This document shows positions 3,069-64,000 of a stretch of 64,000 nt of DNA, piece after piece. Every line of letters begins with the position of its first letter. Position 1 is the stretch's first letter. The stretch comes from Bacteroidia bacterium (GTDB taxonomy: Bacteria; Bacteroidota; Bacteroidia; NS11-12g; UBA9320): contig CBDCFW010000006.1 of assembly GCA_965216465.1 (NCBI GenBank), positions 853,244 through 917,243 of the forward strand, in the 5' to 3' direction. Below the pieces are notes generated by a model. The model had not been told where the DNA came from and did not search any database. It saw nothing but the letters and a program-made list of their open reading frames with translations. Both the position numbers and the translations under genes were made by a program.

Positions 3069-3632
3069 ATGGAATTAGCAGACGTAATAACCGTATATTC
3101 TGAAAAGACGCCGAATCCGGAGTCTATGAAGTTTGTGGCAAACAAGATGATTTTGCCAAATGATAGTGTTGACTTCAGAACAAAAGAAAATCTTGACGAA
3201 TGCCCAATGGCAAAAGAGTTGTTTGAATACGACTTTGTAAAAGGAGTGTTTATCATGAACAACTTTGTTTCGGTAACAAAAAAAGCTGACTACGAATGGT
3301 TCGACATTATTCCTCAGCTTAAGAAATTTGTTCAAGACTACCTTGAAGCCGAAAAGCCAATCATTGAGAAAAAAGAGGAGTTAACTGAAGAAGAAGAAAG
3401 TGAAGTAGTGATGAAAATCAAACAACTTTTGGAGGATCATGTTAAGCCAGCAGTTGAAATGGATGGTGGAGCGATTGATTTTAAAAGCTTCGATGAAGGA
3501 GTTGTAACAGTTACTATGAAAGGTTCTTGTAGCGGATGCCCTTCAAGTACCTTAACGCTTAAAGCTGGAATTGAAAACCTACTAAAAAGAATGATACCTG
3601 AGGTTGAAGCTGTTGAAGCTGAAGCCGGATAA
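3069..3632 (+). CDS. NifU/Nfu-type Fe-S cluster scaffold (Nfu_N domain + NifU C-terminal CxxC domain)
   Basis: YSEKTPNPESMKF matches the Nfu_N signature. GSCSGCPSSTLTLKAGIENLL is the NifU-like CxxC motif. ATG at 3069 is preferred over the 2991 start because it does not overlap the upstream gene. Confidence 0.75.
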   Translation: MELADVITVYSEKTPNPESMKFVANKMILPNDSVDFRTKENLDECPMAKELFEYDFVKGVFIMNNFVSVTKKADYEWFDIIPQLKKFVQDYLEAEKPIIEKKEELTEEEESEVVMKIKQLLEDHVKPAVEMDGGAIDFKSFDEGVVTVTMKGSCSGCPSSTLTLKAGIENLLKRMIPEVEAVEAEAG

Positions 3633-19225: not shown

Positions 19226-19329
19226 TGGAACAAATTTGGCTTTAAACTTCAAGGCTTTCGAAAATTATTTTTTTATTCGATTGAAATAATACTACACTTG
19301 CAGTCGAATTAAGTTCTTTAACGAAATTT

Positions 19330-19430
19330 TCTTATCAAGAAAAGCCGAGGGAATTGGCCCGATGACGCTTTAGCAACCTACCTCCGGTAAGGTGCTAACT
19401 CCAATCTCACATATGTGGGAACAGATAAGT
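19330..19430 (+). promoter_or_regulatory. SAM-I (S-box) riboswitch aptamer
   Basis: CTTATCAAGAAAAGCCGAGGGAATTGGCCCGATGACGC...GCAACC...GGTGCTAACTCC...CAGATAAG matches the SAM-I consensus. This covers the P1 CUUAUC/GAUAAG closure, the GAGGGA-UGGCCCGAUGA core and GGUGCUAAxUCC. Confidence 0.75.
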
Positions 19431-19471
19431 AGTGAATTGTAACAAATCGTGAGAACACGTTAAGATATACA

Positions 19472-19506
19472 AGGCTCTTCTGCTTATCAGGAGAGCCTTT
19501 TTTTTT
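19472..19506 (+). terminator. Riboswitch expression-platform terminator
   Basis: AGGCTCTtctgCTTATCaggAGAGCCT followed by T9. The left arm contains CTTATC, which can alternatively pair with the P1 3' strand. Confidence 0.65.
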
Positions 19507-19559
19507 GGCTCTTCCTGAGGCTCTTTTTGATAGTTTTTTAACCTAATAATTATTTAAAA

Positions 19560-20729
19560 ATGAGCAGAATTACAGAAATTATTCATTCCGTACCAGTAGA
19601 CGAATTAACAGGATCTATCAGCGTACCCGTTTATCAAACTTCAACATTCGTACAACGTGCACCTGGTGTAAACAAGGGGTACGACTATGCCCGTTCTGGG
19701 AATCCAACTCGTTCAGCCCTCGAAAGTGTGCTTTGCAAACTAGAAAATGGTGCAGGAGTAAGTGTGTTCTCCACCGGGCTAGCAGCTATTGATGCCGTAA
19801 TCAAACTATTTAATGCTGGTGATGAGATTATCGCTGTCGATGACATTTATGGAGGTGCTTACCGCCTCTTTGAACATGTGTTTTCACGATTAGGAATCAA
19901 AGTGCACTATGTTGACACTACCGAGACAGCTAATCTAGTTAATTACATTAGTGACAGAACAAAATGCATTTGGCTAGAAACTCCAACCAATCCTACATTA
20001 AAAGTGAGTGACATTAATGCCGCAGCCAAGTTGGCCCAATCTATTGATGCATTATTGGTTGTAGACAACACATTTGCCAGTCCGATTGCTCAACAGCCGA
20101 TTCAATTGGGAGCAGACGTTGTTATTCACAGTGCAACAAAGTATTTAGGAGGACATTCTGATTTGGTAGCTGGAGCAGTTATTTGTAAATCAGAAAAATT
20201 AGCTGAACGTATTCAGTTTATTCAAAACGCATCGGGGGCTATTCTGGGACCTTGGGATTGTTTTCTAGTGTTGAGAGGAATAGAAACCTTAGACCTAAGA
20301 TTCAGAAGGCAATGTGAAACAGCATTGCAAATAGCTCAATATTTGGACTCGCATCCTGATATTGACCAAGTGCATTACCCCGGATTAGTCTCACATCAAA
20401 ATCATCATATTGCCAAGAAACAACAACGTGGCTTGTACGGCGGAGTTGTATCGTTCTCACTAAAGGAAGATAAAACTTCTGTAGCGTCAAAGTTTGTTTC
20501 GAACACCAAATACTTTAAACTGGCAGAGAGTTTGGGTGGAGTAAAAAGTCTTATTTGTCAACCGGCCCTTATGACACATGCTTCGGTACCCAGAGAGAAA
20601 CGCTTGGCATCAGGAGTTCAAGACTCGCTTATCAGATTGTCTTGCGGTATAGAAGACGTCGAGGATTTAATCATTGATTTAGAAACAACATTTGAATTGA
20701 TCAAACGAAAGGAGGTGGAAGTATTATGA
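19560..20729 (+). CDS. PLP-dependent trans-sulfuration enzyme (cystathionine gamma-synthase / beta-lyase family)
   Basis: Cys/Met-metabolism PLP fold with a candidate PLP-lysine segment (HSATKYLGGHSD). It sits under the SAM riboswitch. Confidence 0.8.
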   Translation: MSRITEIIHSVPVDELTGSISVPVYQTSTFVQRAPGVNKGYDYARSGNPTRSALESVLCKLENGAGVSVFSTGLAAIDAVIKLFNAGDEIIAVDDIYGGAYRLFEHVFSRLGIKVHYVDTTETANLVNYISDRTKCIWLETPTNPTLKVSDINAAAKLAQSIDALLVVDNTFASPIAQQPIQLGADVVIHSATKYLGGHSDLVAGAVICKSEKLAERIQFIQNASGAILGPWDCFLVLRGIETLDLRFRRQCETALQIAQYLDSHPDIDQVHYPGLVSHQNHHIAKKQQRGLYGGVVSFSLKEDKTSVASKFVSNTKYFKLAESLGGVKSLICQPALMTHASVPREKRLASGVQDSLIRLSCGIEDVEDLIIDLETTFELIKRKEVEVL

Positions 20730-21898
20730 GTAAATTTAATATAGGGTTATTTGGTTTTGGAGTTGTTGGGGAAGGAATTTACAATGTTATTTCTCAGCAG
20801 AATCAGCTAGATGCTGAGATTGTTAAGATCGTGGTCAAGCAAGAATCAAAATCGAGAAATGCACCTTCAGAGCTATTTTCTCTTAATCAAGATGAAATTT
20901 TTAATAATTCAGAAATCAACTTAATTGTAGAGTTAATAGACGACGCCGATGCGGCCTATCAAATTGTAAAGCGAGCACTGCTATTGGGTAAATCGGTGGT
21001 GAGTGCAAACAAGAAAATGATAGCCAACCACCATCAAGAATTAATTGCATTGAGCAAAAAGCGAAAGGTGTCTTTTCTTTATGAAGCTGCGGTGTGTGGA
21101 AGTGTGCCTATTATTCGAAATCTTGAAGAATACTTTGATCATGATGAGTTGTCATCGGTACAAGGCATTGTGAACGGATCAACCAACTTCATATTAAGTC
21201 AAATGAGCAAAAATGGAGTCAGTTTTAACGAAGCATTAACCACTGCTCAAGAAAAAGGATTTGCAGAATCAGATCCCACTCTTGATGTTGAAGGGGTAGA
21301 TGCAGCCTATAAACTTAGCCTTATTTGCTTGCATGGCTTTGGAAGCAGTGTACCAAGCAATCATGTTATACGAAAGGGAATCACGTCGGTCAATGCCTTC
21401 GATATTCAATTTGGCAAAAAACACAATCTTGCTATCAAGCTAATAGCTCAATGCCATACATCGAAAGGAAACGTTCAAGCACTATCTGTATTTCCAACAT
21501 TTGTTCAAGAAGATTCAAATTTTGGGCGAACTGACAACGAGTATAATTCAGTAAAGTTGAATAGTGCGTTCGCAGATGAGCAATACTTTTATGGTAAAGG
21601 GGCAGGAAGATATCCAACTTCAGCAGCCGTTCTCAGTGATATTTCTGCCCTATCGTACGGCTATGCGTATGCTTACAAGAAAGGAGTAGAAAGATGCAAA
21701 CCAAGTAATCAGTTACGGGCAAAGTTTTTTGTAAGCTTTGATGCCAAGTGTAGTCTCGACAGATCAATCTTTGATAAAATTGATGAAGAGTATAATGGGC
21801 ATACACGGAGCTATGTAGTTGGAGCGATATCGTTGAAGAAACTGAATGCTAGTGGCATACTTAATGATGATACAATCTCAGTAGTTTGCTACAATTAG
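20726..21898 (+). CDS. hom: Homoserine dehydrogenase
   Basis: GLFGFGVVGEG NAD-binding loop and LYEAAVCGSVPII. It overlaps the upstream stop by 4 nt (ATGA). Confidence 0.8.
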   Translation: MSKFNIGLFGFGVVGEGIYNVISQQNQLDAEIVKIVVKQESKSRNAPSELFSLNQDEIFNNSEINLIVELIDDADAAYQIVKRALLLGKSVVSANKKMIANHHQELIALSKKRKVSFLYEAAVCGSVPIIRNLEEYFDHDELSSVQGIVNGSTNFILSQMSKNGVSFNEALTTAQEKGFAESDPTLDVEGVDAAYKLSLICLHGFGSSVPSNHVIRKGITSVNAFDIQFGKKHNLAIKLIAQCHTSKGNVQALSVFPTFVQEDSNFGRTDNEYNSVKLNSAFADEQYFYGKGAGRYPTSAAVLSDISALSYGYAYAYKKGVERCKPSNQLRAKFFVSFDAKCSLDRSIFDKIDEEYNGHTRSYVVGAISLKKLNASGILNDDTISVVCYN

Positions 21899-22026
21899 TT
21901 GGCGATAAATTGATCTGGAGCAGTTCAGATGGACCGTTTAGTATGTGACTTTGTTTTACCCACCAACACCTTTGCATCTTTCAGTTTACGTGCAAAGCGG
22001 TCCATTTCTCCTGAAGTGAGAAATGA

Positions 22027-22914
22027 TTACTTGCTTAAGATTTTTTTAAGATCGTCAATACCAGATAAAAGCATAAGATTATTGCATTCTGGCATCGTAC
22101 ACTGACTATTTTGAACGCCGCCTCCACCAATAAGCAATTTTGTTTCCAGAAGCTTGTTTGAGATTTTATCAAGGTATGCAGAAAGTTTATTATCAGGCCT
22201 TGACGTTATAAATAGTGTCAAAATATGCGTTGGGTTGGTTAGCTCTGCACATTCCATTACTCCGTCAAAAGGCACACTTGAACCCAAGTAAATGCATTCA
22301 TATCCAGCCTTGCGAATGAGGTAGTAGCCATAAAGAAGGCCAATTTCATGGTTTTCGTCGTCGGGTAAGTAAAGTAAAAACTTTTTGCTACCCTTTCTTT
22401 GAGGAAGACTGTTTATAGCACTGTACAACTTCTGTCTTAACAATTGACTTGCAAAATGTTCCTGAGCAGGATAAAGCTTATTAACTGACCATAGCATGCC
22501 TATCTTTCCTAAGAGAGGATATACGATTTCTTCAATGGTCTCTTCCAGTCCGAACATTTTTATACATTCAGCATAAGTGTCTTCAAACGCATAAATGTCA
22601 CATTTTAGCGTAGCTACGATAAGCTTGTTCGTCAAGAAAGCGTTGTTGTGGTCTTCATCAAAAGAAATAAGCGATTCAATCTCAGAATGGAGCTGGTCGT
22701 TATTAAGCGAGCTTGCTCTGCTAATCTTCATACCACTATCTAACAATGTGGTTATGTTCAACAGTTTTTTCAGATCTTGATGGCTATACGTCCGAATATT
22801 GGTTGGTGTTCGATCGGGCTCAAAAATGCTATAGCGCTTCTCCCACATCCTAATGGTATGGGCCTTAATTCCGCTCAGATTCTCAAGATCTCGTATGCTA
22901 AGTCTGCTTATCAC
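22027..22914 (-). CDS. CarH/LitR-type transcription factor: MerR HTH + Wx9EH four-helix bundle + B12-binding domain
   Basis: The N-terminal LSIRDLENLSGIKAHTIRMWEKRY is a MerR HTH. MLWSVNKLYPAQEHF is the Wx9EH motif. DENHEIG...LGSSVP...LLIGGGG are the ExHxxG, S/GxL and GG B12-binding motifs. Confidence 0.7.
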   Translation of the reverse strand: MISRLSIRDLENLSGIKAHTIRMWEKRYSIFEPDRTPTNIRTYSHQDLKKLLNITTLLDSGMKISRASSLNNDQLHSEIESLISFDEDHNNAFLTNKLIVATLKCDIYAFEDTYAECIKMFGLEETIEEIVYPLLGKIGMLWSVNKLYPAQEHFASQLLRQKLYSAINSLPQRKGSKKFLLYLPDDENHEIGLLYGYYLIRKAGYECIYLGSSVPFDGVMECAELTNPTHILTLFITSRPDNKLSAYLDKISNKLLETKLLIGGGGVQNSQCTMPECNNLMLLSGIDDLKKILSK

Positions 22915-23009
22915 TTACTTTCTAAAAGGAATAACAGTGCAATAATGTTTGTTTTGGGGCATAAAAAAAAGGCTGCTACAGCAACCTTTTCTTCATTTTG
23001 TATACGCTA

Positions 23010-23747
23010 TTACTTCGAAAGCAAGAAGCGATAGAGTCGTTTCTTTTCTGCTTTTTGTGATTTCTTATGCGTTTTTCGAGGTTTAACGTTTTGCTCAGAT
23101 GCAATTTCTTGTCTTTGCTTTTCGGCTTCATCAAAAACAGGTTTTAGATCTACCATAATTGCATCTAATTCTGTTTGATGAGCTGAAATAATGGGGTCAA
23201 GCATTTGATTAATTTCCTGACGCTTTGCTTTGAGTTCTTCCCTTTCTTGCTCTGTAAGTGTCTTACGCTCGCCTTTCTTATGCTTTGGCTTTAAAGCTCT
23301 TGCTTCTTCTATGATCTGCTTTTCATCTTCGGTGAGCAACTTGTCAAATTCAACTCTTTTGGCTTGTACTTGAGGCTTAACATGCTCTTTGTGGTACTGT
23401 TTAATCTGCTGATGAGCTTCTTTTCTCTCCGTTTTCATTTGTTTATGAACTTCTTTCAGGGCTATTATTTGATCCTCATCAAGAACTTCATGAATGGCAG
23501 TTCGTTGGTCTTTTTTAATGGCTTTGAAGGCTTCTTTATTTTTCTCCCCACTTAATTTTAGGGCTTTAATTTCTTCAGCACTTTTCAGCATAATTTGGTA
23601 CACATCAGTTTTTTGATCTTCACTTAATTGAACTTTTTGATCAAGTAGTTCTACGTGTTTTTTCGCTCTCTCTTCTGGAGATACTTTTTGAGCTATTACC
23701 GCCTGGCAGAATAACATCAGTACTAGTGTTAATTTAATTACCTTCAT
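23010..23747 (-). CDS. Periplasmic coiled-coil protein with LTXXQ-like repeats (Spy/CpxP-like)
   Basis: Signal peptide, Lys/Glu-rich sequence, and LSEDQKTDV and LTEDEKQII motifs. Confidence 0.5.
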   Translation of the reverse strand: MKVIKLTLVLMLFCQAVIAQKVSPEERAKKHVELLDQKVQLSEDQKTDVYQIMLKSAEEIKALKLSGEKNKEAFKAIKKDQRTAIHEVLDEDQIIALKEVHKQMKTERKEAHQQIKQYHKEHVKPQVQAKRVEFDKLLTEDEKQIIEEARALKPKHKKGERKTLTEQEREELKAKRQEINQMLDPIISAHQTELDAIMVDLKPVFDEAEKQRQEIASEQNVKPRKTHKKSQKAEKKRLYRFLLSK

Positions 23748-23812
23748 ATCTTATCGTTTATTTCTTTGACATGAATAACACAAGTTTTATTCCATTTAGT
23801 GCCAGAGTCGGC

Positions 23813-24223
23813 CTATTTATGCTCAGAATGGCGAGATCTTTGGCGGTCATGACGTGGTCCGTGAGGAGGTCTCGAAGCCCTATGTTCCTTAATTCTTTCT
23901 AGTTTTTGAATCTGATTATCTTTCAGGTGTGGAGTTATTTTTTGAAACATTTCATTTCGCAGCGAATCCATCTCTGCACGATGTTTTTGCCGTACTTCTT
24001 TGTGTACAGGTAACATAGAATCTAGAATAGGTTTTATCTCTGATTCTTGTTCTTCAGTTAAATCAAGGCGTTTCATCCAATGTCTTCCTTCTGCTTTTGG
24101 ATTGTGGGTCATTTCATGGATGTGCTTGATTCTTTTTTTGGCCATTCTCCCAGAAATGAAAAAACCAAGTACAAACCCCATCAGTAGGGTTAAGGTTAGT
24201 GTAAGTATCAATTTTTTACTCAT
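23813..24223 (-). CDS. Periplasmic LTXXQ-motif protein (Spy/CpxP-like), membrane-anchored
   Basis: N-terminal TM or signal sequence, LDLTEEQESEI motif and a basic C-terminal tail. Confidence 0.5.
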   Translation of the reverse strand: MSKKLILTLTLTLLMGFVLGFFISGRMAKKRIKHIHEMTHNPKAEGRHWMKRLDLTEEQESEIKPILDSMLPVHKEVRQKHRAEMDSLRNEMFQKITPHLKDNQIQKLERIKEHRASRPPHGPRHDRQRSRHSEHK

Positions 24224-24225
24224 GA

Positions 24226-24486
24226 TTATAGATATTCAAAAATGTCTGTTGATGATGAAAAGCTAAGTTGATCAACGCCCAATAGCGTGTCGTAGTTTAT
24301 TGAGCCATCTTGAAAGTAGATGAGCCCAAGACAAACGGCAATCGATGCGGCAATACCACTAACCAGCCATTTGTAGCTTGGTAAATGTATAACTTTGGCA
24401 GGTTCAATACTCTCCATAACAAGTTCTTCGAAGCTTGCATCAAAGCTGTATTGCATCTTTTTTAATTGTTCGTCTGTGTTATTCAT
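24226..24486 (-). CDS. Small single-pass membrane protein, likely the anti-sigma factor for the adjacent ECF sigma
   Basis: 86 aa with one TM helix (GIAASIAVCLGLIYF). Its start overlaps the ECF sigma stop. Confidence 0.45.
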   Translation of the reverse strand: MNNTDEQLKKMQYSFDASFEELVMESIEPAKVIHLPSYKWLVSGIAASIAVCLGLIYFQDGSINYDTLLGVDQLSFSSSTDIFEYL

Positions 24487-25036
24487 GCTGATAGTTTAAA
24501 TCTTTTTCGAGGATTAATTTTAATTTTTCCATTCCGCGTTTTAATCGAGAAAGGACGGTTCCTTTTGGAACTTCTAGAATATCTGCTGTTTCTTGCGTGC
24601 TAAAGCCTTGTATCATTCGAATAACAACAACACTGCGGTGCTTATCGTCGAGTCGCTTTAAAGCTTGAGCAATTATTTCTTTGCTTTCGAAATCATCTGA
24701 ACCTGTTGTTATCCGGTGGCTTGCTTTGGATAAGTCTAAACTTCTCTTGGCAAAGTTTTGTCTCCTTTTAAGCACGTTAATGCTCAAATTCATTGTGATA
24801 CGGGTTAAGTAAGTTGCAAGTTTTGCATCTTTTCTAAACTGGGGTAAAGAACGGTGAAGCCGAATGAATACCTCTTGACCAACTTCAGTGGCATCGTGGT
24901 AATCTCCAACCATATTCATTGCAACAGTTGCAACCATACTTTTATGTCTGGTTATAATCTCTTTGAACGCAGCCTGATTGCCCGATTTAGACAAATCGAC
25001 AAGTTCAAAATCAGATAGTTTGGTTACAGATTGCAA
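24479..25036 (-). CDS. ECF-type RNA polymerase sigma-70 factor
   Basis: Region 2 (HDATEVGQEVFIRLHRSL) and region 4 (FSTQETADILEVPKGTVLSRLKRG). Confidence 0.85.
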   Translation of the reverse strand: MQSVTKLSDFELVDLSKSGNQAAFKEIITRHKSMVATVAMNMVGDYHDATEVGQEVFIRLHRSLPQFRKDAKLATYLTRITMNLSINVLKRRQNFAKRSLDLSKASHRITTGSDDFESKEIIAQALKRLDDKHRSVVVIRMIQGFSTQETADILEVPKGTVLSRLKRGMEKLKLILEKDLNYQHE

Positions 25037-25274
25037 TTGCTTTTACCTTATTGACAATGTAAAGCATTAAAAGATTCCAAGAAAATTAGTGAATTTTACA
25101 TCCAGCCCATTTCGACTTTGGTCTTATTTCTCGTGTTGCATTTATTTCTTGAGGCACAAGAACTCAACACGGTAGCGAGACCGAAAAGTGCTAGAAAAAA
25201 GATAGCTTTTTGCTTAGAAGACATATGCAAGTATAACGTTCTTGAAACAATATGTATTATTCAGATATGCCATT

Positions 25275-26426
25275 TTAGTGCAAGAGCTGTATAGCGTCTA
25301 GGTATCGGTCCGGCAAATCGCCACTTGTAGCCTGCTGATAATCAGAGTATAAGCAAGGAATAATCAAGTTTTTATCGCGGTTGTTTAGACTTCTGGGATG
25401 TGGAATCTCCATCCACCATCTATTCGTTCTTTTGCTTTTATGAAAGATGATGTCCTGGTGATTGTTTTCAAACCCACATCTATAACGTAAAAACTCGTCG
25501 TGCAAACTGGGGTGATCTTGTCTTCTATTAGCGTATCCATCAATGAAGTACCAAATAATTTGGGCTGCAAGTTGAGAAGTTAAGTTTCGGTTATCTAATC
25601 GAGGGTTTACTTCAAATAAGCCAAAGCATTGAGAAGTATCACTTACTCCAGCATACCATGCTAATTGACAAGCCATGTCACCTTCTAGTCCCAATTGGAT
25701 TTCCATTTTCATTACCAGGAGCATCAGAACTCTTAATAGCACTGATATCCATCAAGGTAAGATGGTTGTTTCTCAAAAGCAGTTCGGCCTCCTCAACATT
25801 TTTCTTTAAAGCACCTAAGCGGAGATGTCCCAAAATTCAAATTCTGAAGTACATCGAGCATTTTGGGAGGCACTGTAGTGCCCTTGAAATGCTAAGGCAT
25901 TTAAGCGTAGCAAGTGGTTTGGCTCGTTTCGAATTATACCATCGAGTAATTGTCCTTCCAATATTGGAATACGCGACGAGATGTACGAGATTTCAATGCT
26001 TTGATTGTGGTTGGCAAAACTTTCATAAAGGGCTTGACCAAGCTGATAGCTTCCTCCAATAACAATGCTGACAATGTTTTGCTCATGAAGTTGCTCAACA
26101 ATATCTTTTAATCCAACAAGCGTATCATCGAAAGTTTCACCGCTTTTTAGGTTTCCAAGATCAACTACAGATTTTTCAATGTAGGTGTTAGAAACCAATT
26201 TATACAGTTCCTTTCTAATTTGGTTAGGAGCTTCAATGGTTCCTTCGTTTTGCAATTCGAGATTTTCGGGTACCCCAATTATTGCAAGATTAATTTGCTC
26301 TAGAGATGGGAATTTTTCATCGTACTTAGCAAGCGAAGCACCGAGCTCGAATGGCTGATATTCATTAGATATTTTTAATCGTTTCGAAGTATTCCTGAAA
26401 CATTGAATATATTCGTGATTCAACAA
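25275..26426 (-). pseudogene. Arginase/formiminoglutamase-fold gene disrupted by two frameshifts. TTG start, no ATG anywhere in the N-terminal ORF, and metal-ligand motifs substituted.
   Basis: The N-terminal ORF (25815..26426) and C-terminal ORF (25275..25742) are in the same frame but separated by TAG, TAA, TGA and TGA stops. A second frame across 25716..25816 reads ...LTLMDISAIKSSDAPGNENGNPIG, the SxDxDxxDP...APGTG region. The C-terminal ORF has the GLFEVNP signature. GGDHS has become GGSYQ and DAHAD has become FQGHY. Confidence 0.45.
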
Positions 26427-29155: not shown

Positions 29156-29228
29156 TTGACCGACCAGGGCTCGAACCTGGACTCTTCTGGACCAAAACCA
29201 GACGTGTTGCCAGTTACACCATCGGTCA
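29156..29228 (-). tRNA. tRNA-Gln (anticodon UUG)
   Basis: Cloverleaf with a U1-A72 acceptor, D stem GTGT/ACAC, anticodon stem TCTGG/CCAGA, loop TTTTGGT (anticodon TTG) and T loop TTCGAGC. No encoded CCA. Confidence 0.85.
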
Positions 29229-55383: not shown

Positions 55384-55470
55384 GGAGAGATGCCAGAGCG
55401 GTCGATCGGGCTACCCTGGAAAGGTAGTGTACCCTTACGGGTACCGAGGGTTCGAATCCCTCTCTCTCCG
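55384..55470 (+). tRNA. tRNA-Ser (anticodon GGA), class II with a long variable arm
   Basis: GGAGAGA acceptor, anticodon stem CTACC/GGTAG with loop CTGGAAA (anticodon GGA), long extra arm, GTTCGAATC T loop and G discriminator. Confidence 0.85.
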
Positions 55471-62307: not shown

Positions 62308-63699
62308 CTACTTGTTTAAATGGTAATACACACCAACTCCAAATCCATATCGAGTAAACTTTTGTTTGATCACTGTAGATGAAAGGGTATTGGTTAAATC
62401 CTGGCTAATGCTGGTGTTAAGTTGCAAGGTAAATTGCTGATTCATGCGATAATTAAGTCGAATAGATCCACCGGCATCTATTAATAGTTTGTTTAGGGGT
62501 AGGTCGTTTAATGAAGTTGGTTTAATTCCTGTAGAAAGTACATCTCCTTTGGCTCCAACTAACACACCAATGTTTGACTGCAGATTGGTTTCTACATTAA
62601 ATCTTGTACTGATATAGAATGTTTTTCCAAGTAGCACAGGAACAGAAATGTAACTATACGTTGGGCTCGAGAACTGACTATTCAGTGTTGTGTCTCTATA
62701 GTTAAAATAGAAGTAATCTACCGTATCTTGGCCAATAATGTGAGGTATGCTATCAAACAGTTGGTACGTCAACGCTTGTGTTGATTGCCCTTTTTGTAGG
62801 AATGAAATACCAGTTCCTAAGTTCAAAGATTTCATATTCATCTTGTACATAAGGTCGTATGACATCAATACGCGACTGGTCTCGTTTTGTGCTCTGTAAT
62901 TCTCATAATCTTGGTGCTCGGCTGCTCCAGCAATTGACTGTGAATTAATCATCGGATTGATGTTAAATCCGATTGTTGGATTTGTAAAGCGTGGTGGTTG
63001 TGGTAATGTACCTGCATTCACTTTGGTGTCTGGTTCCTTTGAAGCTTTAATGGCATTGCGGTCTAAAACGTAAGGTATTTCATCTAAACCAATGGATTTT
63101 ATAGAGAAGCTATGAATCTCAGCTAATGTGTACTCTTTTCGTATAGTAAGATCTGCTATTGAGGGAGTTGGTTTAGGTTCCATTGGTTTTGTTAATGGAG
63201 TTTCATCCGCTGGTACTTCATCTTCCGAACTTGGAGTTGAATTATTTGCTGGCTGCTCAATAACCGGACTTGCATCAACAACTTCAACTTCCTCTGAACT
63301 ACTCGCACTTACTTGTTCCGCTATTGGGTTACTTGGCTCTGAAACAGTCTCGCTTATCGTATTAGAAGTCTCAGAAATGGCTTCTTCAGCTGACAACTCT
63401 TCTTGAGATGTTCTCTCTTCAGTTGAAATTTCATTTAGCTCATCAAAGTTTGTCTCTGCAACAAGTTCCGTTTCGGCGTCATTGTTTTCAGTGGTACTAT
63501 CTGACTTTGAAGCCACAACATACCAAACCCCAGCAGAAAGAAGGAGGGCAGGCAATAACCAAATCCACCATCCAAAGCGTTTCTTCTTAGGATGCAATTC
63601 ATTGGCAATAGCATCCCACTCGTTACCGGTTAATGGTAACTCGCTGTCGTTCAAAAGGTCTTTGAACAAATCGTCGATATGCTTCTTTTGCTTAGCCAA
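62308..63699 (-). CDS. Putative anti-sigma factor: short cytoplasmic N-terminus, one TM helix, acidic Ser/Glu-rich linker and a C-terminal beta-rich (outer-membrane-barrel-like) domain
   Basis: TTG start overlapping the stop of the upstream ECF sigma gene. TM helix WWIWLLPALLLSAGVWYVVA. The C-terminus has alternating hydrophobic strands ending GFGVGVYYHLNK. Confidence 0.5.
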   Translation of the reverse strand: MAKQKKHIDDLFKDLLNDSELPLTGNEWDAIANELHPKKKRFGWWIWLLPALLLSAGVWYVVASKSDSTTENNDAETELVAETNFDELNEISTEERTSQEELSAEEAISETSNTISETVSEPSNPIAEQVSASSSEEVEVVDASPVIEQPANNSTPSSEDEVPADETPLTKPMEPKPTPSIADLTIRKEYTLAEIHSFSIKSIGLDEIPYVLDRNAIKASKEPDTKVNAGTLPQPPRFTNPTIGFNINPMINSQSIAGAAEHQDYENYRAQNETSRVLMSYDLMYKMNMKSLNLGTGISFLQKGQSTQALTYQLFDSIPHIIGQDTVDYFYFNYRDTTLNSQFSSPTYSYISVPVLLGKTFYISTRFNVETNLQSNIGVLVGAKGDVLSTGIKPTSLNDLPLNKLLIDAGGSIRLNYRMNQQFTLQLNTSISQDLTNTLSSTVIKQKFTRYGFGVGVYYHLNK

Positions 63700-64000
63700 T
63701 GTTAAATCTTTCTTTTACAATTGTTTTTAGCAACTTCCGAGCTCTAGCTAATTGAGACTTAGAAGTTCCTTCGCTAATATTTAGTTTCTCTGCAATCTGC
63801 TTATGGGTAAACCCATCTATGGCATACAAGTTAAAAACCATTTTATATCCATCGGGTAATTCGTTGATCGCTTTGTATAAGTCAGCTACTTTGATTTGAT
63901 CATCATCGTATTCAACTTCATCAACATAAGATTCGCCTGAAGCCTTGTAGATGTCTTCATCGCTATCGTAGTAGTTGAATTTAATACTCCCCTTAAAATG
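63692..64000 (-). CDS. ECF sigma-70 factor, 3' portion only (N-terminus lies beyond the window edge)
   Basis: The minus-strand translation ...LPDGYKMVFNLYAIDGFTHKQIAEKLNISEGTSKSQLARARKLLK is sigma-70 region 4.2. Its stop overlaps the anti-sigma start. Confidence 0.75.
   Translation of the reverse strand, partial: HFKGSIKFNYYDSDEDIYKASGESYVDEVEYDDDQIKVADLYKAINELPDGYKMVFNLYAIDGFTHKQIAEKLNISEGTSKSQLARARKLLKTIVKERFNIG

Follow-up and report, generated by a model that had tools for sequence, protein, structure and literature searches.

The window, that is the whole 64,000-nucleotide stretch of DNA analysed here, carries a gene for an ordinary added member of the CarH/LitR family of B12 photoreceptors, in an orphaned state. 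The explanation that best accounts for all observations, to which we give a probability of about 0.65, is that the gene is a CarH/LitR orthologue that has lost its crt operon, that it is left with unlinked targets and that the ECF sigma module beside it is a separate unit. The window would thus add one CarH homologue in a neighbourhood produced by gene loss, and not a new light circuit.

In the clade to which the locus belongs, made up of marine Bacteroidia metagenome lineages, the ancestral order would have been an arginase-like gene, a block encoding a small lipoprotein, an ECF sigma factor, its putative anti-sigma factor, an LTXXQ protein and a 245-aa protein, then a terminator, carH, an operator and crtI-crtB-crtZ-crtY, with rpoD facing the last of these. 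If CarH here works like its Thermus and Bacillus counterparts, an AdoCbl-bound CarH oligomer would bind an operator of TnnACA half-sites in the dark, and light would photolyse the AdoCbl and release the repression. The predicted clade operator and the sigma-A-type -7 box in the crtI promoter overlap. Operator and crtIBZY would then have been deleted here and in locus L001, with a SAM-riboswitch methionine operon taking their place here, which would leave carH an orphan: an intact gene with a promoter of its own, still under purifying selection. It would most likely regulate unlinked targets elsewhere in the genome, these distal targets being assumed from a view of only 64 kb.

The carH-type regulator

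22027..22914, minus strand: carH/litR-type gene, 295 aa, GTG start; MerR winged HTH, four-helix bundle with Wx9EH and B12-binding Rossmann domain
22915..22960, minus strand: carH promoter and leader, from the alignment with L001, L082, L084 and L168; promoter putative, from consensus

The first-pass annotation had called 22027..22914 a CarH/LitR-type regulator, and this was borne out, as the MerR HTH, the Wx9EH motif and the ExHxxG motif all aligned to Thermus CarH. The Pfam families MerR_1 (residues 6-67, E 1.6e-13) and B12-binding_2 (E 6.4e-10) matched above their cut-offs, and the N-terminal region aligned to the DNA-binding domain structures of CarH and CarA. Like Thermus thermophilus CarH (TtCarH/LitR; PDB 5C8D/5C8E/3WHP), the protein has the three-part architecture over its full length; residues 6-265 aligned to 5c8d/3whp with an E value of 1e-22, and the Trp, the Glu-His pair and the lower axial His were in register. 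Wx9EH corresponds to W142..E152 H153 and ExHxxG to E187-N-H189-E-I-G192, and W142, E152, H153 and H189 are invariant across 24 homologues (39-70% identity). The GTG start is also kept in L001. Judged by these domains and motifs, 22027..22914 is a genuine full-length homologue of the CarH/LitR-type AdoB12 photoreceptor-repressors.

The annotation had also claimed the complete set of motifs. Wx9EH, ExHxxG and GG were present, and the middle element deviates. The B12-binding motif of class I CarH/LitR proteins is ExHx2G-x41-SxV/T-x22-27-GG (PMC8156234); the window protein has x40, then T233-L-F235, then x27 and GG263-264, so that the departure is slight (x40 versus x41 and T233-L-F235 versus S-x-V/T). 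The Rossmann part scored 16 bits (E 0.011) against Pfam B12-binding, under the cut-off of 32.1. AdoCbl binding is predicted with these two points in mind, the Thr in place of the SxV/T Ser and the score under threshold, and light- and AdoCbl-dependent oligomerisation and DNA release are predicted by analogy. The NCBIfam CarH model NF052513 matched at E 1.7e-32 and was covered from position 8 to 216 of its 274, its 112.8 bits lying far under the equivalog cut-off of 400 bits; on these scores the protein is a CarH family member outside the curated equivalog set. It differs from TtCarH in being only about 25-30% identical, in having Ser143 at the position of the His beside the Trp, which in TtCarH forms the bis-His photoproduct, and in having Thr233 for the SxV/T Ser.

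Gene order in relatives and the missing crt genes

The clade order is ECF module, carH, operator, crtIBZY and rpoD. In relatives with a 50-63% identical CarH, crtI-crtB-crtZ-crtY directly follows carH (L082, L084, L086, L093-L098, L166 and L168), with the operator in the carH-crtI gap. This is also a likeness to TtCarH, as the gene adjoins crt genes in the relatives. In the window and in L001, operator and crtIBZY are missing and carH is kept. Where relatives hold operator and crtIBZY, the slot between carH and rpoD is filled in the window by a methionine operon with a SAM riboswitch:

19329..21898, plus strand: SAM riboswitch (Rfam RF00162, 83.9 bits), Cys/Met PLP enzyme and homoserine dehydrogenase, from Pfam and synteny

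No crt homologue was detected in the 64-kb window by phmmer or by tblastn at E<=1, which confirms the earlier statement that the window lacks carotenoid genes. Since the relatives carry crtIBZY and the operator right after carH, the locus is, on comparative grounds, ancestrally a pigment module whose pigment genes were lost here, and with operator and crtIBZY deleted carH is therefore an orphan.

The crt genes could instead have been relocated, with CarH still controlling pigment genes elsewhere in the genome and the adjacency being irrelevant. We consider this possible but doubtful. In bacteria, crt loci are often unlinked, and the retention of CarH under selection would fit. Against it, there is no crt gene and no operator in the 64 kb. 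A weak further argument is that, among the 120 best CrtI relatives, a list reaching down to 59% identity, no member was on a contig of 1,299,333 bp, which is how long the contig with this carH is.

All 40 family-invariant residues are kept in the window CarH. Compared with L001 it has a dN of 0.24 and a saturated dS. It is as distant from outgroups as crt-linked orthologues are, with no rate acceleration. These comparisons argue that carH is still under purifying selection and therefore that it probably controls unlinked targets. Within the carH leader, a conserved AAAACAAACAWTWTTG holds CAnnTTTG, which resembles the Bacteroidetes -7 box, and a single isolated CAAACA half-site; no complete operator was found in 22915..22960, where scores of the operator position weight matrix (PWM) were below -20. 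A conserved AAACAAACA before carH was considered as an autoregulatory site and left without assignment, being a single half-site-like element with an inconsistent arrangement across loci.

The same data bear on whether carH is a functionless relic heading for loss, the deletion having removed the one operator and operon it acted on. The sole target that could be recognised is indeed gone, L165 could be the next step, with carH lost too, and an arginase-like gene next to the module shows three apparent frame changes around 25700..25860. However, the reading frame is intact at all 40 family-invariant positions, relatives with crt genes share the conserved promoter motif, and the outgroup distances match those of crt-linked orthologues. 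Moreover, the window and L001 are both crt-less and yet separated by a dN of 0.24 and a saturated dS, which points to long survival under constraint. A relic is therefore unlikely. An orphan regulator that is still in use agrees better with these data, and such natural orphan CarH genomes (the window and L001) are a place to seek non-pigment targets of a B12 photoreceptor.

A candidate CarH operator in Bacteroidota

In 1.72 Mb of loci, GTTTA and TAAAC were found at an offset of 23 in 119 cases and of 24 in 29 cases, versus about 4 for each other offset. This inverted repeat, GTTTA-N18-TAAAC, occurs across Bacteroidota, where in other genomes it stands before carH, before crtI and before genes of a different ECF family; 168 distinct sites were collected, among them 26 before carH, 62 before the ECF gene right after carH and 10 before crtI. 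The TAAACA half-site agrees with TnnACA, the core of the CarH repeat nAnnTnnACAn described in PMC8156234, which is a likeness to TtCarH, and from comparative genomics we take GTTTA-N18-TAAAC as the CarH operator. TtCarH differs in using three tandem 11-bp direct repeats, where the predicted Bacteroidota site is an inverted pair 23-24 bp apart, and in that its target operon has no counterpart in the window.

In the clade, sites lie in the carH-crtI gap, with a perfect one in L168. They consist of the inverted pair TTGTTTAA-N16-TTAAACAA and a third half-site 11 bp downstream, and they overlap the crtI -7 box. The extra 11-bp-spaced half-site was seen only in the window's clade; over all Bacteroidota sites no general peak was found at this spacing. 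No experimentally characterised CarH from Bacteroidota was found in the literature searched, and the inverted pair overlapping the -7 promoter box gives a concrete operator prediction for this group.

Direct repeats of the CarH operator type had been proposed as a check in 22915..23010 and 25037..25275, and none were found there or elsewhere in the window. Tandem 11-bp direct repeats (TnnACA three times, at most 1 mismatch) gave 0 matches in the window versus 0.8 expected. The inverted-repeat operator (at most 2 mismatches) gave 10 versus 9.45 expected, none of them at the carH or ECF promoters. The best PWM score over the window was 4.8, inside recQ, versus a training median of 29, and scores in 25000..25320 were below -23, so that no CarH-type operator was detected at the ECF sigma promoter. 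A generic repeat search of the two intervals returned only a terminator stem and an 8-nt repeat inside a small ORF.

In 61 of 123 loci of other Bacteroidota, CarH lies immediately before an ECF sigma gene that has the operator in front of it. Around half of these regulators thus precede a dedicated ECF sigma factor, including Bacteroidales loci without crt genes beside carH, and on this gene order CarH-to-ECF cascades clearly exist in Bacteroidota. The carH-linked ECFs score 227-274 bits among themselves with their HMM and 32-48 bits for the window-type sigma, and by these scores they are a different family from the window sigma.

The ECF sigma/LTXXQ operon and its relation to carH

25096..25224, minus strand: lipoprotein-like 42-aa ORF (MSSKQKAIFFLALFGLATVLSSC..., C-terminal KVEMGWM); co-occurs with the ECF module; no Pfam match
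25053..25078, minus strand: GGAATC-N16-TGTC, resembling an ECF-type promoter, 17 nt before the sigma gene; putatively autoregulatory
24479..25036, minus strand: ECF sigma factor, 185 aa, TTG start; start position conserved in clade loci
24226..24486, minus strand: putative anti-sigma factor, 86-aa single-TM protein, by position and translational coupling only
23813..24223, minus strand: membrane-anchored LTXXQ-family protein, 136 aa; LTEEQ at 55; His/Arg-rich C-terminal tail
23768..23793, minus strand: GGAATA-N16-ATGTC, a second motif resembling an ECF-type promoter, 21 nt before the 245-aa gene
23010..23747, minus strand: secreted, highly charged 245-aa protein with three L[ST]E[DEQ][QE] motifs (LSEDQ 41, LTEDE 138, LTEQE 164)
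22961..22996, minus strand: intrinsic terminator of the ECF operon, 16-bp stem, then U8, from the repeat search

The five ORFs reported by the first-pass annotation between 22027 and 25036 were all present on the minus strand. Its description of an ECF sigma, a one-TM anti-sigma and two LTXXQ proteins stood for the sigma factor, the single-TM protein and the 136-aa LTXXQ protein. The sigma factor matched Sigma70_r2 (1e-14), r4 (1.4e-10) and TIGR02937 (95 bits, cut-off 42.9), and the best NCBIfam models, SigM and SigW, were all under their own cut-offs. The 136-aa protein scored 26.1 bits against Pfam LTXXQ (PF07813; cut-off 24.3) and did not match PF13801.

The other two assignments stood only in part. 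The 86-aa ORF overlaps the end (stop codon) of the sigma gene by 8 nt and encodes one hydrophobic helix; no family or anti-sigma domain was matched among Pfam and NCBIfam profiles, and it is weakly similar to a 134-aa protein after the ECF gene in L167 (E 8e-7). It is a putative cognate anti-sigma factor by position and translational coupling. The 245-aa protein had no Pfam match; its first domain matches the profile of the 136-aa family (hhalign E 2.1e-5) and has a weak match to E. coli CpxP (E 0.05). Profiles of the two families gave nothing significant against solved structures, CpxP appearing at E 0.05 only. By profile-profile comparison the 245-aa protein would be a distant LTXXQ/CpxP-like protein.

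The motif before the sigma gene is kept as GGAATC/CGAAATC-N16-TGTC(TA) in 12 of 12 clade loci with the module, and the one before the 245-aa gene is conserved in position in L001, L086 and L165. GGAAT-N16-GTC was absent before carH or crtI in 11 clade loci and in the window. A sigma-70 consensus scan was uninformative here, as Bacteroidota promoters differ from that consensus. The terminator between the ECF operon and carH folds with -18.9 kcal/mol (z -5.55), and an equivalent hairpin and T-run is found in L001, L082, L084 and L168; a simple terminator scan missed it owing to its loop-size rule. With ECF-type promoters of its own and a strong terminator before carH, the ECF operon is, as predicted from these elements, a transcription unit separate from carH.

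The module and carH also occur apart. Loci L083, L087, L089 and L091 have carH and crt without the module, L165 has the module without carH or crt, and L167 has ECF, anti-sigma and LTXXQ genes at a site without carH; both crt-less genomes that retain carH (the window and L001) retain the module. With all combinations occurring, the comparison indicates that the two are gained and lost independently. As part of the preferred reading, the adjacency would be inherited gene order and no regulatory circuit.

The first-pass annotation had taken the neighbourhood for an ECF/envelope module coupled to light, comparable to CarQ/CarR-CarH, and not for a pigment module. In such a circuit either CarH would act as a dark repressor of the ECF operon or the ECF sigma would drive carH, and light would induce an envelope or photo-oxidative stress response instead of pigments. 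Most clade members keep the two side by side, the presence of the module in both crt-less genomes with carH is compatible with an undetected link, and CarH stands right upstream of operator-preceded ECF genes in half of the loci surveyed above. Those ECFs belong to another family, however; neither ECF-type promoter has an operator, no clade locus has an ECF-type promoter before carH, a strong terminator separates the units, and module and carH each occur without the other. Together with crtIBZY in the relatives, this leaves the claim unsupported, and we regard one circuit as highly improbable. We give equally little credence to a rewiring in which the photoreceptor was kept for non-pigment targets after pigment loss, possibly the ECF/LTXXQ operon through a non-canonical site; were it true, the envelope stress response of a non-pigmented marine bacterium would be gated by light.

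In Streptomyces LitR-LitS, the AdoB12-dependent LitR controls a partner ECF sigma (PMC11519972). A CarH-family regulator beside an ECF sigma is shared, and many other Bacteroidota loci have the order carH, operator, ECF, crtI. In the window, by contrast, the ECF gene is upstream of carH, has an ECF-type promoter without operator and is of another ECF family; a putative anti-sigma and LTXXQ proteins accompany it, and a terminator follows. The likeness to CarQ/CarR/CarS with CarA/CarH of Myxococcus xanthus, an ECF sigma and membrane anti-sigma with a CarH crt repressor in one organism, is nominal: the window has no CarS-like antirepressor gene, its putative anti-sigma is an 86-aa single-TM protein, and the clade loci have no ECF-type promoter before carH or crtI.

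Another counterpart is CnrH-CnrY-CnrX and the ECF281/ECF290 type, with an ECF sigma, an anti-sigma and a periplasmic 'heavy-metal resistance'/LTXXQ protein at +2 (PMC7826278). The window has the same order of sigma, small membrane protein and membrane-anchored LTXXQ protein at +2, a putative ECF-type autoregulatory promoter and, in its 245-aa protein, a weak similarity to CpxP of the E. coli CpxP/Spy proteins. It differs in that the putative anti-sigma lacks a zinc finger and matched none of the known anti-sigma domains, and in the additional 245-aa LTXXQ-like protein with its own putative promoter and the 42-aa lipoprotein ORF. Under the preferred reading, the cluster would be a self-regulated envelope- or metal-stress module of CnrH/ECF281-290-like architecture. 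The arginase-like gene beside the module has three apparent frame changes in the window.

Identity of the CarH homologue

The carH gene and its neighbors lie in a locus without compositional break (G+C ~38% across the whole window), with the following features.

25224..25096 (-): 42-aa lipoprotein-like ORF ending KVEMGWM, upstream of the sigma gene, just before the ECF promoter
25078..25053 (-): ECF-type promoter-like motif before the sigma gene, GGAATC-N16-TGTC form
25036..24479 (-): ECF sigma gene, TTG start, first in transcription order
24486..24226 (-): 86-aa ORF, 8-nt overlap with the end of the sigma gene
24223..23813 (-): 136-aa ORF, third in transcription order
23793..23768 (-): second copy of the promoter-like motif, before the 245-aa gene; conserved in L001, L086, and L165
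23747..23010 (-): 245-aa ORF, fourth in transcription order
22914..22027 (-): 295-aa ORF (carH), GTG start, 95-bp gap after the 245-aa ORF
19329..19431 (+): SAM riboswitch (RF00162, 83.9 bits)

The Pfam domains MerR_1 (1.6e-13) and B12-binding_2 (6.4e-10) were above threshold in the 295-aa protein, and the Rossmann B12-binding domain was matched weakly (E 0.011). The NCBIfam CarH model matched with E 1.7e-32, at 112.8 bits far under its 400-bit equivalog cut-off. The top solved structures were those of Thermus thermophilus CarH (3WHP, 5C8D; E 1e-22, residues 6-265), with the lower axial His, the Glu-His pair, and the Trp in register. CarH homologues are required to harbor both Wx9EH and ExHx2Gx41SxV/Tx22-27GG (PMC8156234). 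The first motif is exactly present (W142-x9-E152-H153), and the second (E187-x-H189-x-x-G192, then x40, T233-L-F235, x27, GG) deviates only by Ser to Thr and a spacer one residue shorter. Across 24 aligned homologues (39-70% identity), W142, E152, H153, H189, and the DNA-binding residues were invariant, and the recognition helix (KAHTIR.WE.R, TNIR.Y) was mostly so. The first-pass annotation of a CarH/LitR-type ORF with a MerR HTH, Wx9EH, and a B12 motif is borne out by Pfam, the structure match, and this alignment. Judged by its sequence, the protein belongs to the CarH/LitR family and is predicted to work like its members. The family is large (5549 clusters at E<=1e-5), its named members are Bacteroidota, and no experimental work on a Bacteroidota CarH was found in the literature searched. 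The window CarH is an ordinary further member of a known photoreceptor family, and its interest lies in its orphaned state.

A candidate operator and the loss of the pigment operon

CarH-homologue loci (L001-L168) were collected from reference genomes (80, ~40% identity), from metagenomes (80), and by exact look-up (several). The clade to which the window belongs (mostly marine metagenomes; 50-70% CarH identity) conserves the macro-synteny recQ, prs, L25, epimerase, arginase-like, ..., rpoD, icd, LPG-synthase. Its full order is arginase-like > small lipoprotein > ECF > anti-sigma > LTXXQ > 245-aa > carH > crtI > crtB > crtZ > crtY > < rpoD. This arrangement with crtIBZY was found in L082, L084, L086, L093-L098, L166, and L168. 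Of the crt-bearing relatives, L168 is the closest (63% CarH identity) and has exactly this order. Among carH-bearing clade loci, crtIBZY is absent only from the window and L001 (CarH 69-70% identical). In L001, rpoD directly follows carH; in the window, the slot is filled by the SAM riboswitch, a Cys/Met PLP enzyme, and homoserine dehydrogenase. As first annotated, there are no carotenoid genes in the window: no crt homologue or fragment was detected anywhere in the 64 kb. The reading as a stress module "rather than a pigment module" was not supported, since the clade relatives carry crtIBZY after carH.

In the pooled loci, GTTTA...TAAAC pairs were offset by exactly 23 nt 119 times and by 24 nt 29 times, other offsets averaging ~4; the inverted repeat at this offset is ~30-fold over background. 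The pooled sites gave the consensus TTTTGTTTAA-N16-TTAAACAAAA. The repeat TTGTTTAA-N16-TTAAACAA is found Bacteroidota-wide in L002-L164, just 5' of carH, crtI, and a dedicated ECF sigma family (e.g., L003 9970-9997, L018 10976-11003, L012 10904-10931, and L168 2687-2714). Among the 168 distinct sites, 26 precede carH by 3-80 nt, 62 precede an ECF sigma gene located directly after carH, and 10 precede crtI. Intragenic matches numbered 30, ~20 of them one conserved coding palindrome. The palindrome GTTTACCAGNTCNCNNATNCTGGTAAAC, located inside the gene that precedes carH and part of its coding sequence, recurs in many loci from soda lakes and sediments (L099, e.g., 3346-3373, L101, L107-L114, L118, L119, L121, L132, L137, and L138); it fits the operator pattern at its ends only and was treated as conserved coding sequence.

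The left arm of the repeat overlaps a TAnnTTTG element, which matches the -7 box consensus of Bacteroidetes promoters; a protein occupying this position would block access of RNA polymerase. TAAACA fits the TnnACA core of nAnnTnnACAn, the CarH repeat described previously (PMC8156234). Because of the site positions, the -7-box overlap, the TnnACA fit, and the invariant DNA-binding residues, we infer by comparison that CarH of Bacteroidota uses the inverted repeat as its operator. The architecture of this candidate operator differs from the tandem direct repeats of Thermus and Bacillus CarH. Clade relatives of the window carry the site between carH and crtI, in a gap of 40-52 bp (PWM scores 12-23; perfect in L168), with a third half-site 11 bp further on.

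No such site was detected in the window, where the PWM score peaked over the whole length at 4.8, within recQ (training median, 29), and stayed below -20 at 21850..23050 and 25000..25320. The inverted repeat with <=2 mismatches gave 10 matches against 9.45 expected, none at promoters of interest. The CarH operator-like direct repeats that the first reading suggested looking for were absent from 22915..23010 and 25037..25275, and triple 11-bp direct repeats gave 0 matches window-wide (0.8 expected). L001 likewise has no operator site by PWM. The operator and pigment operon adjoining carH are deleted in the window, leaving carH orphaned.

No sign of carH decay was found. The gene keeps every family-invariant position of the 24-homologue alignment, dN against L001 is 0.24 (dS saturated), and its identities to outgroup CarH are on a par with those of crt-linked orthologues (39-42% vs 36-41%). 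The parsimonious reading is that the crt loss is common to the window and L001, and carH has therefore long been maintained without adjacent targets; if the loss is indeed shared, this points to unlinked targets. As weak evidence against relocated crt genes, none of the 120 top-ranked CrtI relatives (identity down to 59%) lies on a contig with the length of the one carrying this carH (1,299,333 bp).

The neighboring ECF operon

Sigma-2 and sigma-4 domains are clear in the sigma factor, which passed the ECF superfamily model. The 136-aa protein, with an N-terminal membrane anchor and a His/Arg-rich tail at its end, passed Pfam LTXXQ (26.1 vs 24.3 bits). The 86-aa protein has a single hydrophobic helix and no family match, and is a putative anti-sigma by position and translational coupling. 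A signal peptide and three LTXXQ-like motifs are present in the 245-aa protein, which had no Pfam match; its first domain matched the 136-aa family profile (hhalign, 77% probability, E 2.1e-5) and showed weak similarity to E. coli CpxP (E 0.05). Of the sigma, one-TM anti-sigma, and two LTXXQ proteins first annotated, the sigma and the 136-aa protein thus stand as described, the anti-sigma by position and coupling and the 245-aa protein by profile. The lipoprotein-like ORF (42-47 aa; signal peptide, Cys, basic tail with invariant KVEMGWM-stop; no family match) is conserved in L001, L082, L084-L086, and L092-L098, only where the module or a remnant occurs.

The motif GGAATC (or CGAAATC)-N16-TGTC(TA), presumably an ECF-type promoter by its form, lies ~17-25 nt 5' of the sigma start in 12 of 12 clade loci with the module; it is absent before carH or crtI in every locus examined. 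The 245-aa gene is followed by a hairpin (-18.9 kcal/mol, z -5.55) and eight U, with hairpin counterparts in L001, L082, L084, and L168. A short promoter region of its own therefore precedes carH, and the motif AAAACAAACAWTWTTG in it is common to the window, L001, L082, and L168.

Most clade loci have the ECF module, carH, and crt. The module is missing from L083, L087, L089, and L091, which keep carH and crt, and is reduced to the lipoprotein and 245-aa genes in L092. The window and L001 have the module and carH without crt, and L165 has the module alone. In the more distant L167 (sigma 46% identical), sigma > anti-sigma > membrane-anchored LTXXQ occurs in an unrelated neighborhood without carH. 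The module and carH are therefore gained and lost independently, a pattern of gene content that argues against an obligatory circuit.

The likeness of the arrangement to Myxococcus CarQ/CarR-CarH and Streptomyces LitR-LitS is superficial only: a search of the window for the link that defines those systems (an operator 5' of the sigma gene, or an ECF promoter 5' of carH/crt) found neither. A LitR-LitS-like order, carH > operator > ECF (> crtI...), is common in other Bacteroidota (61 of 123 loci with enough sequence downstream of carH). The sigma family there is distinct, anti-sigma-less, ~167 aa long, and behind the inverted repeat (e.g., L018, L027, L099, and L122); its HMM gave 227-274 bits for members vs 32-48 bits for the window-type sigma. 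crtI follows in 21 of the 61; the other 40, many of them Bacteroidales or Lentimicrobium MAGs, have no crtI within 2.5 kb. These loci suggest a light cascade of the LitR/LitS type whose outputs are not pigments. The window module is similar in gene layout to the ECF281/ECF290/CnrH type, in which a "heavy-metal resistance" or LTXXQ protein is encoded at +2 (PMC7826278).

The ECF operon is an independent stress module, a separate unit from carH. The first-pass observation was confirmed and its interpretation partly supported; the light-coupled, CarQ/CarR-CarH-like circuit was not supported, in view of the operon's own ECF promoters, the terminator, the lack of an operator, and the independent presence and absence.

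Minor observations on the locus

L165 (5639..9824) lacks both carH and crtIBZY; it retains intact ECF sigma, anti-sigma, and LTXXQ genes, and its 245-aa gene is in two parts and its epimerase gene in three. In the window, the SAM riboswitch heads a methionine operon (19329..21898, +) of the PLP enzyme then homoserine dehydrogenase genes (4-nt overlap), absent from the otherwise syntenic L001. Two tRNA genes, one between prs and recQ, lie at 29156..29228 (-) and 55384..55470 (+), and a second ECF sigma ORF (63692..64000, -) is truncated by the window edge. The arginase/formimidoylglutamase-like gene (25275..26426, -) matches the intact 374-aa L001 protein end to end (62% identity), with three frame changes within ~25700..25860. 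These produce four in-frame stop codons, pointing either to a pseudogene or to assembly errors in the form of single-base indels.
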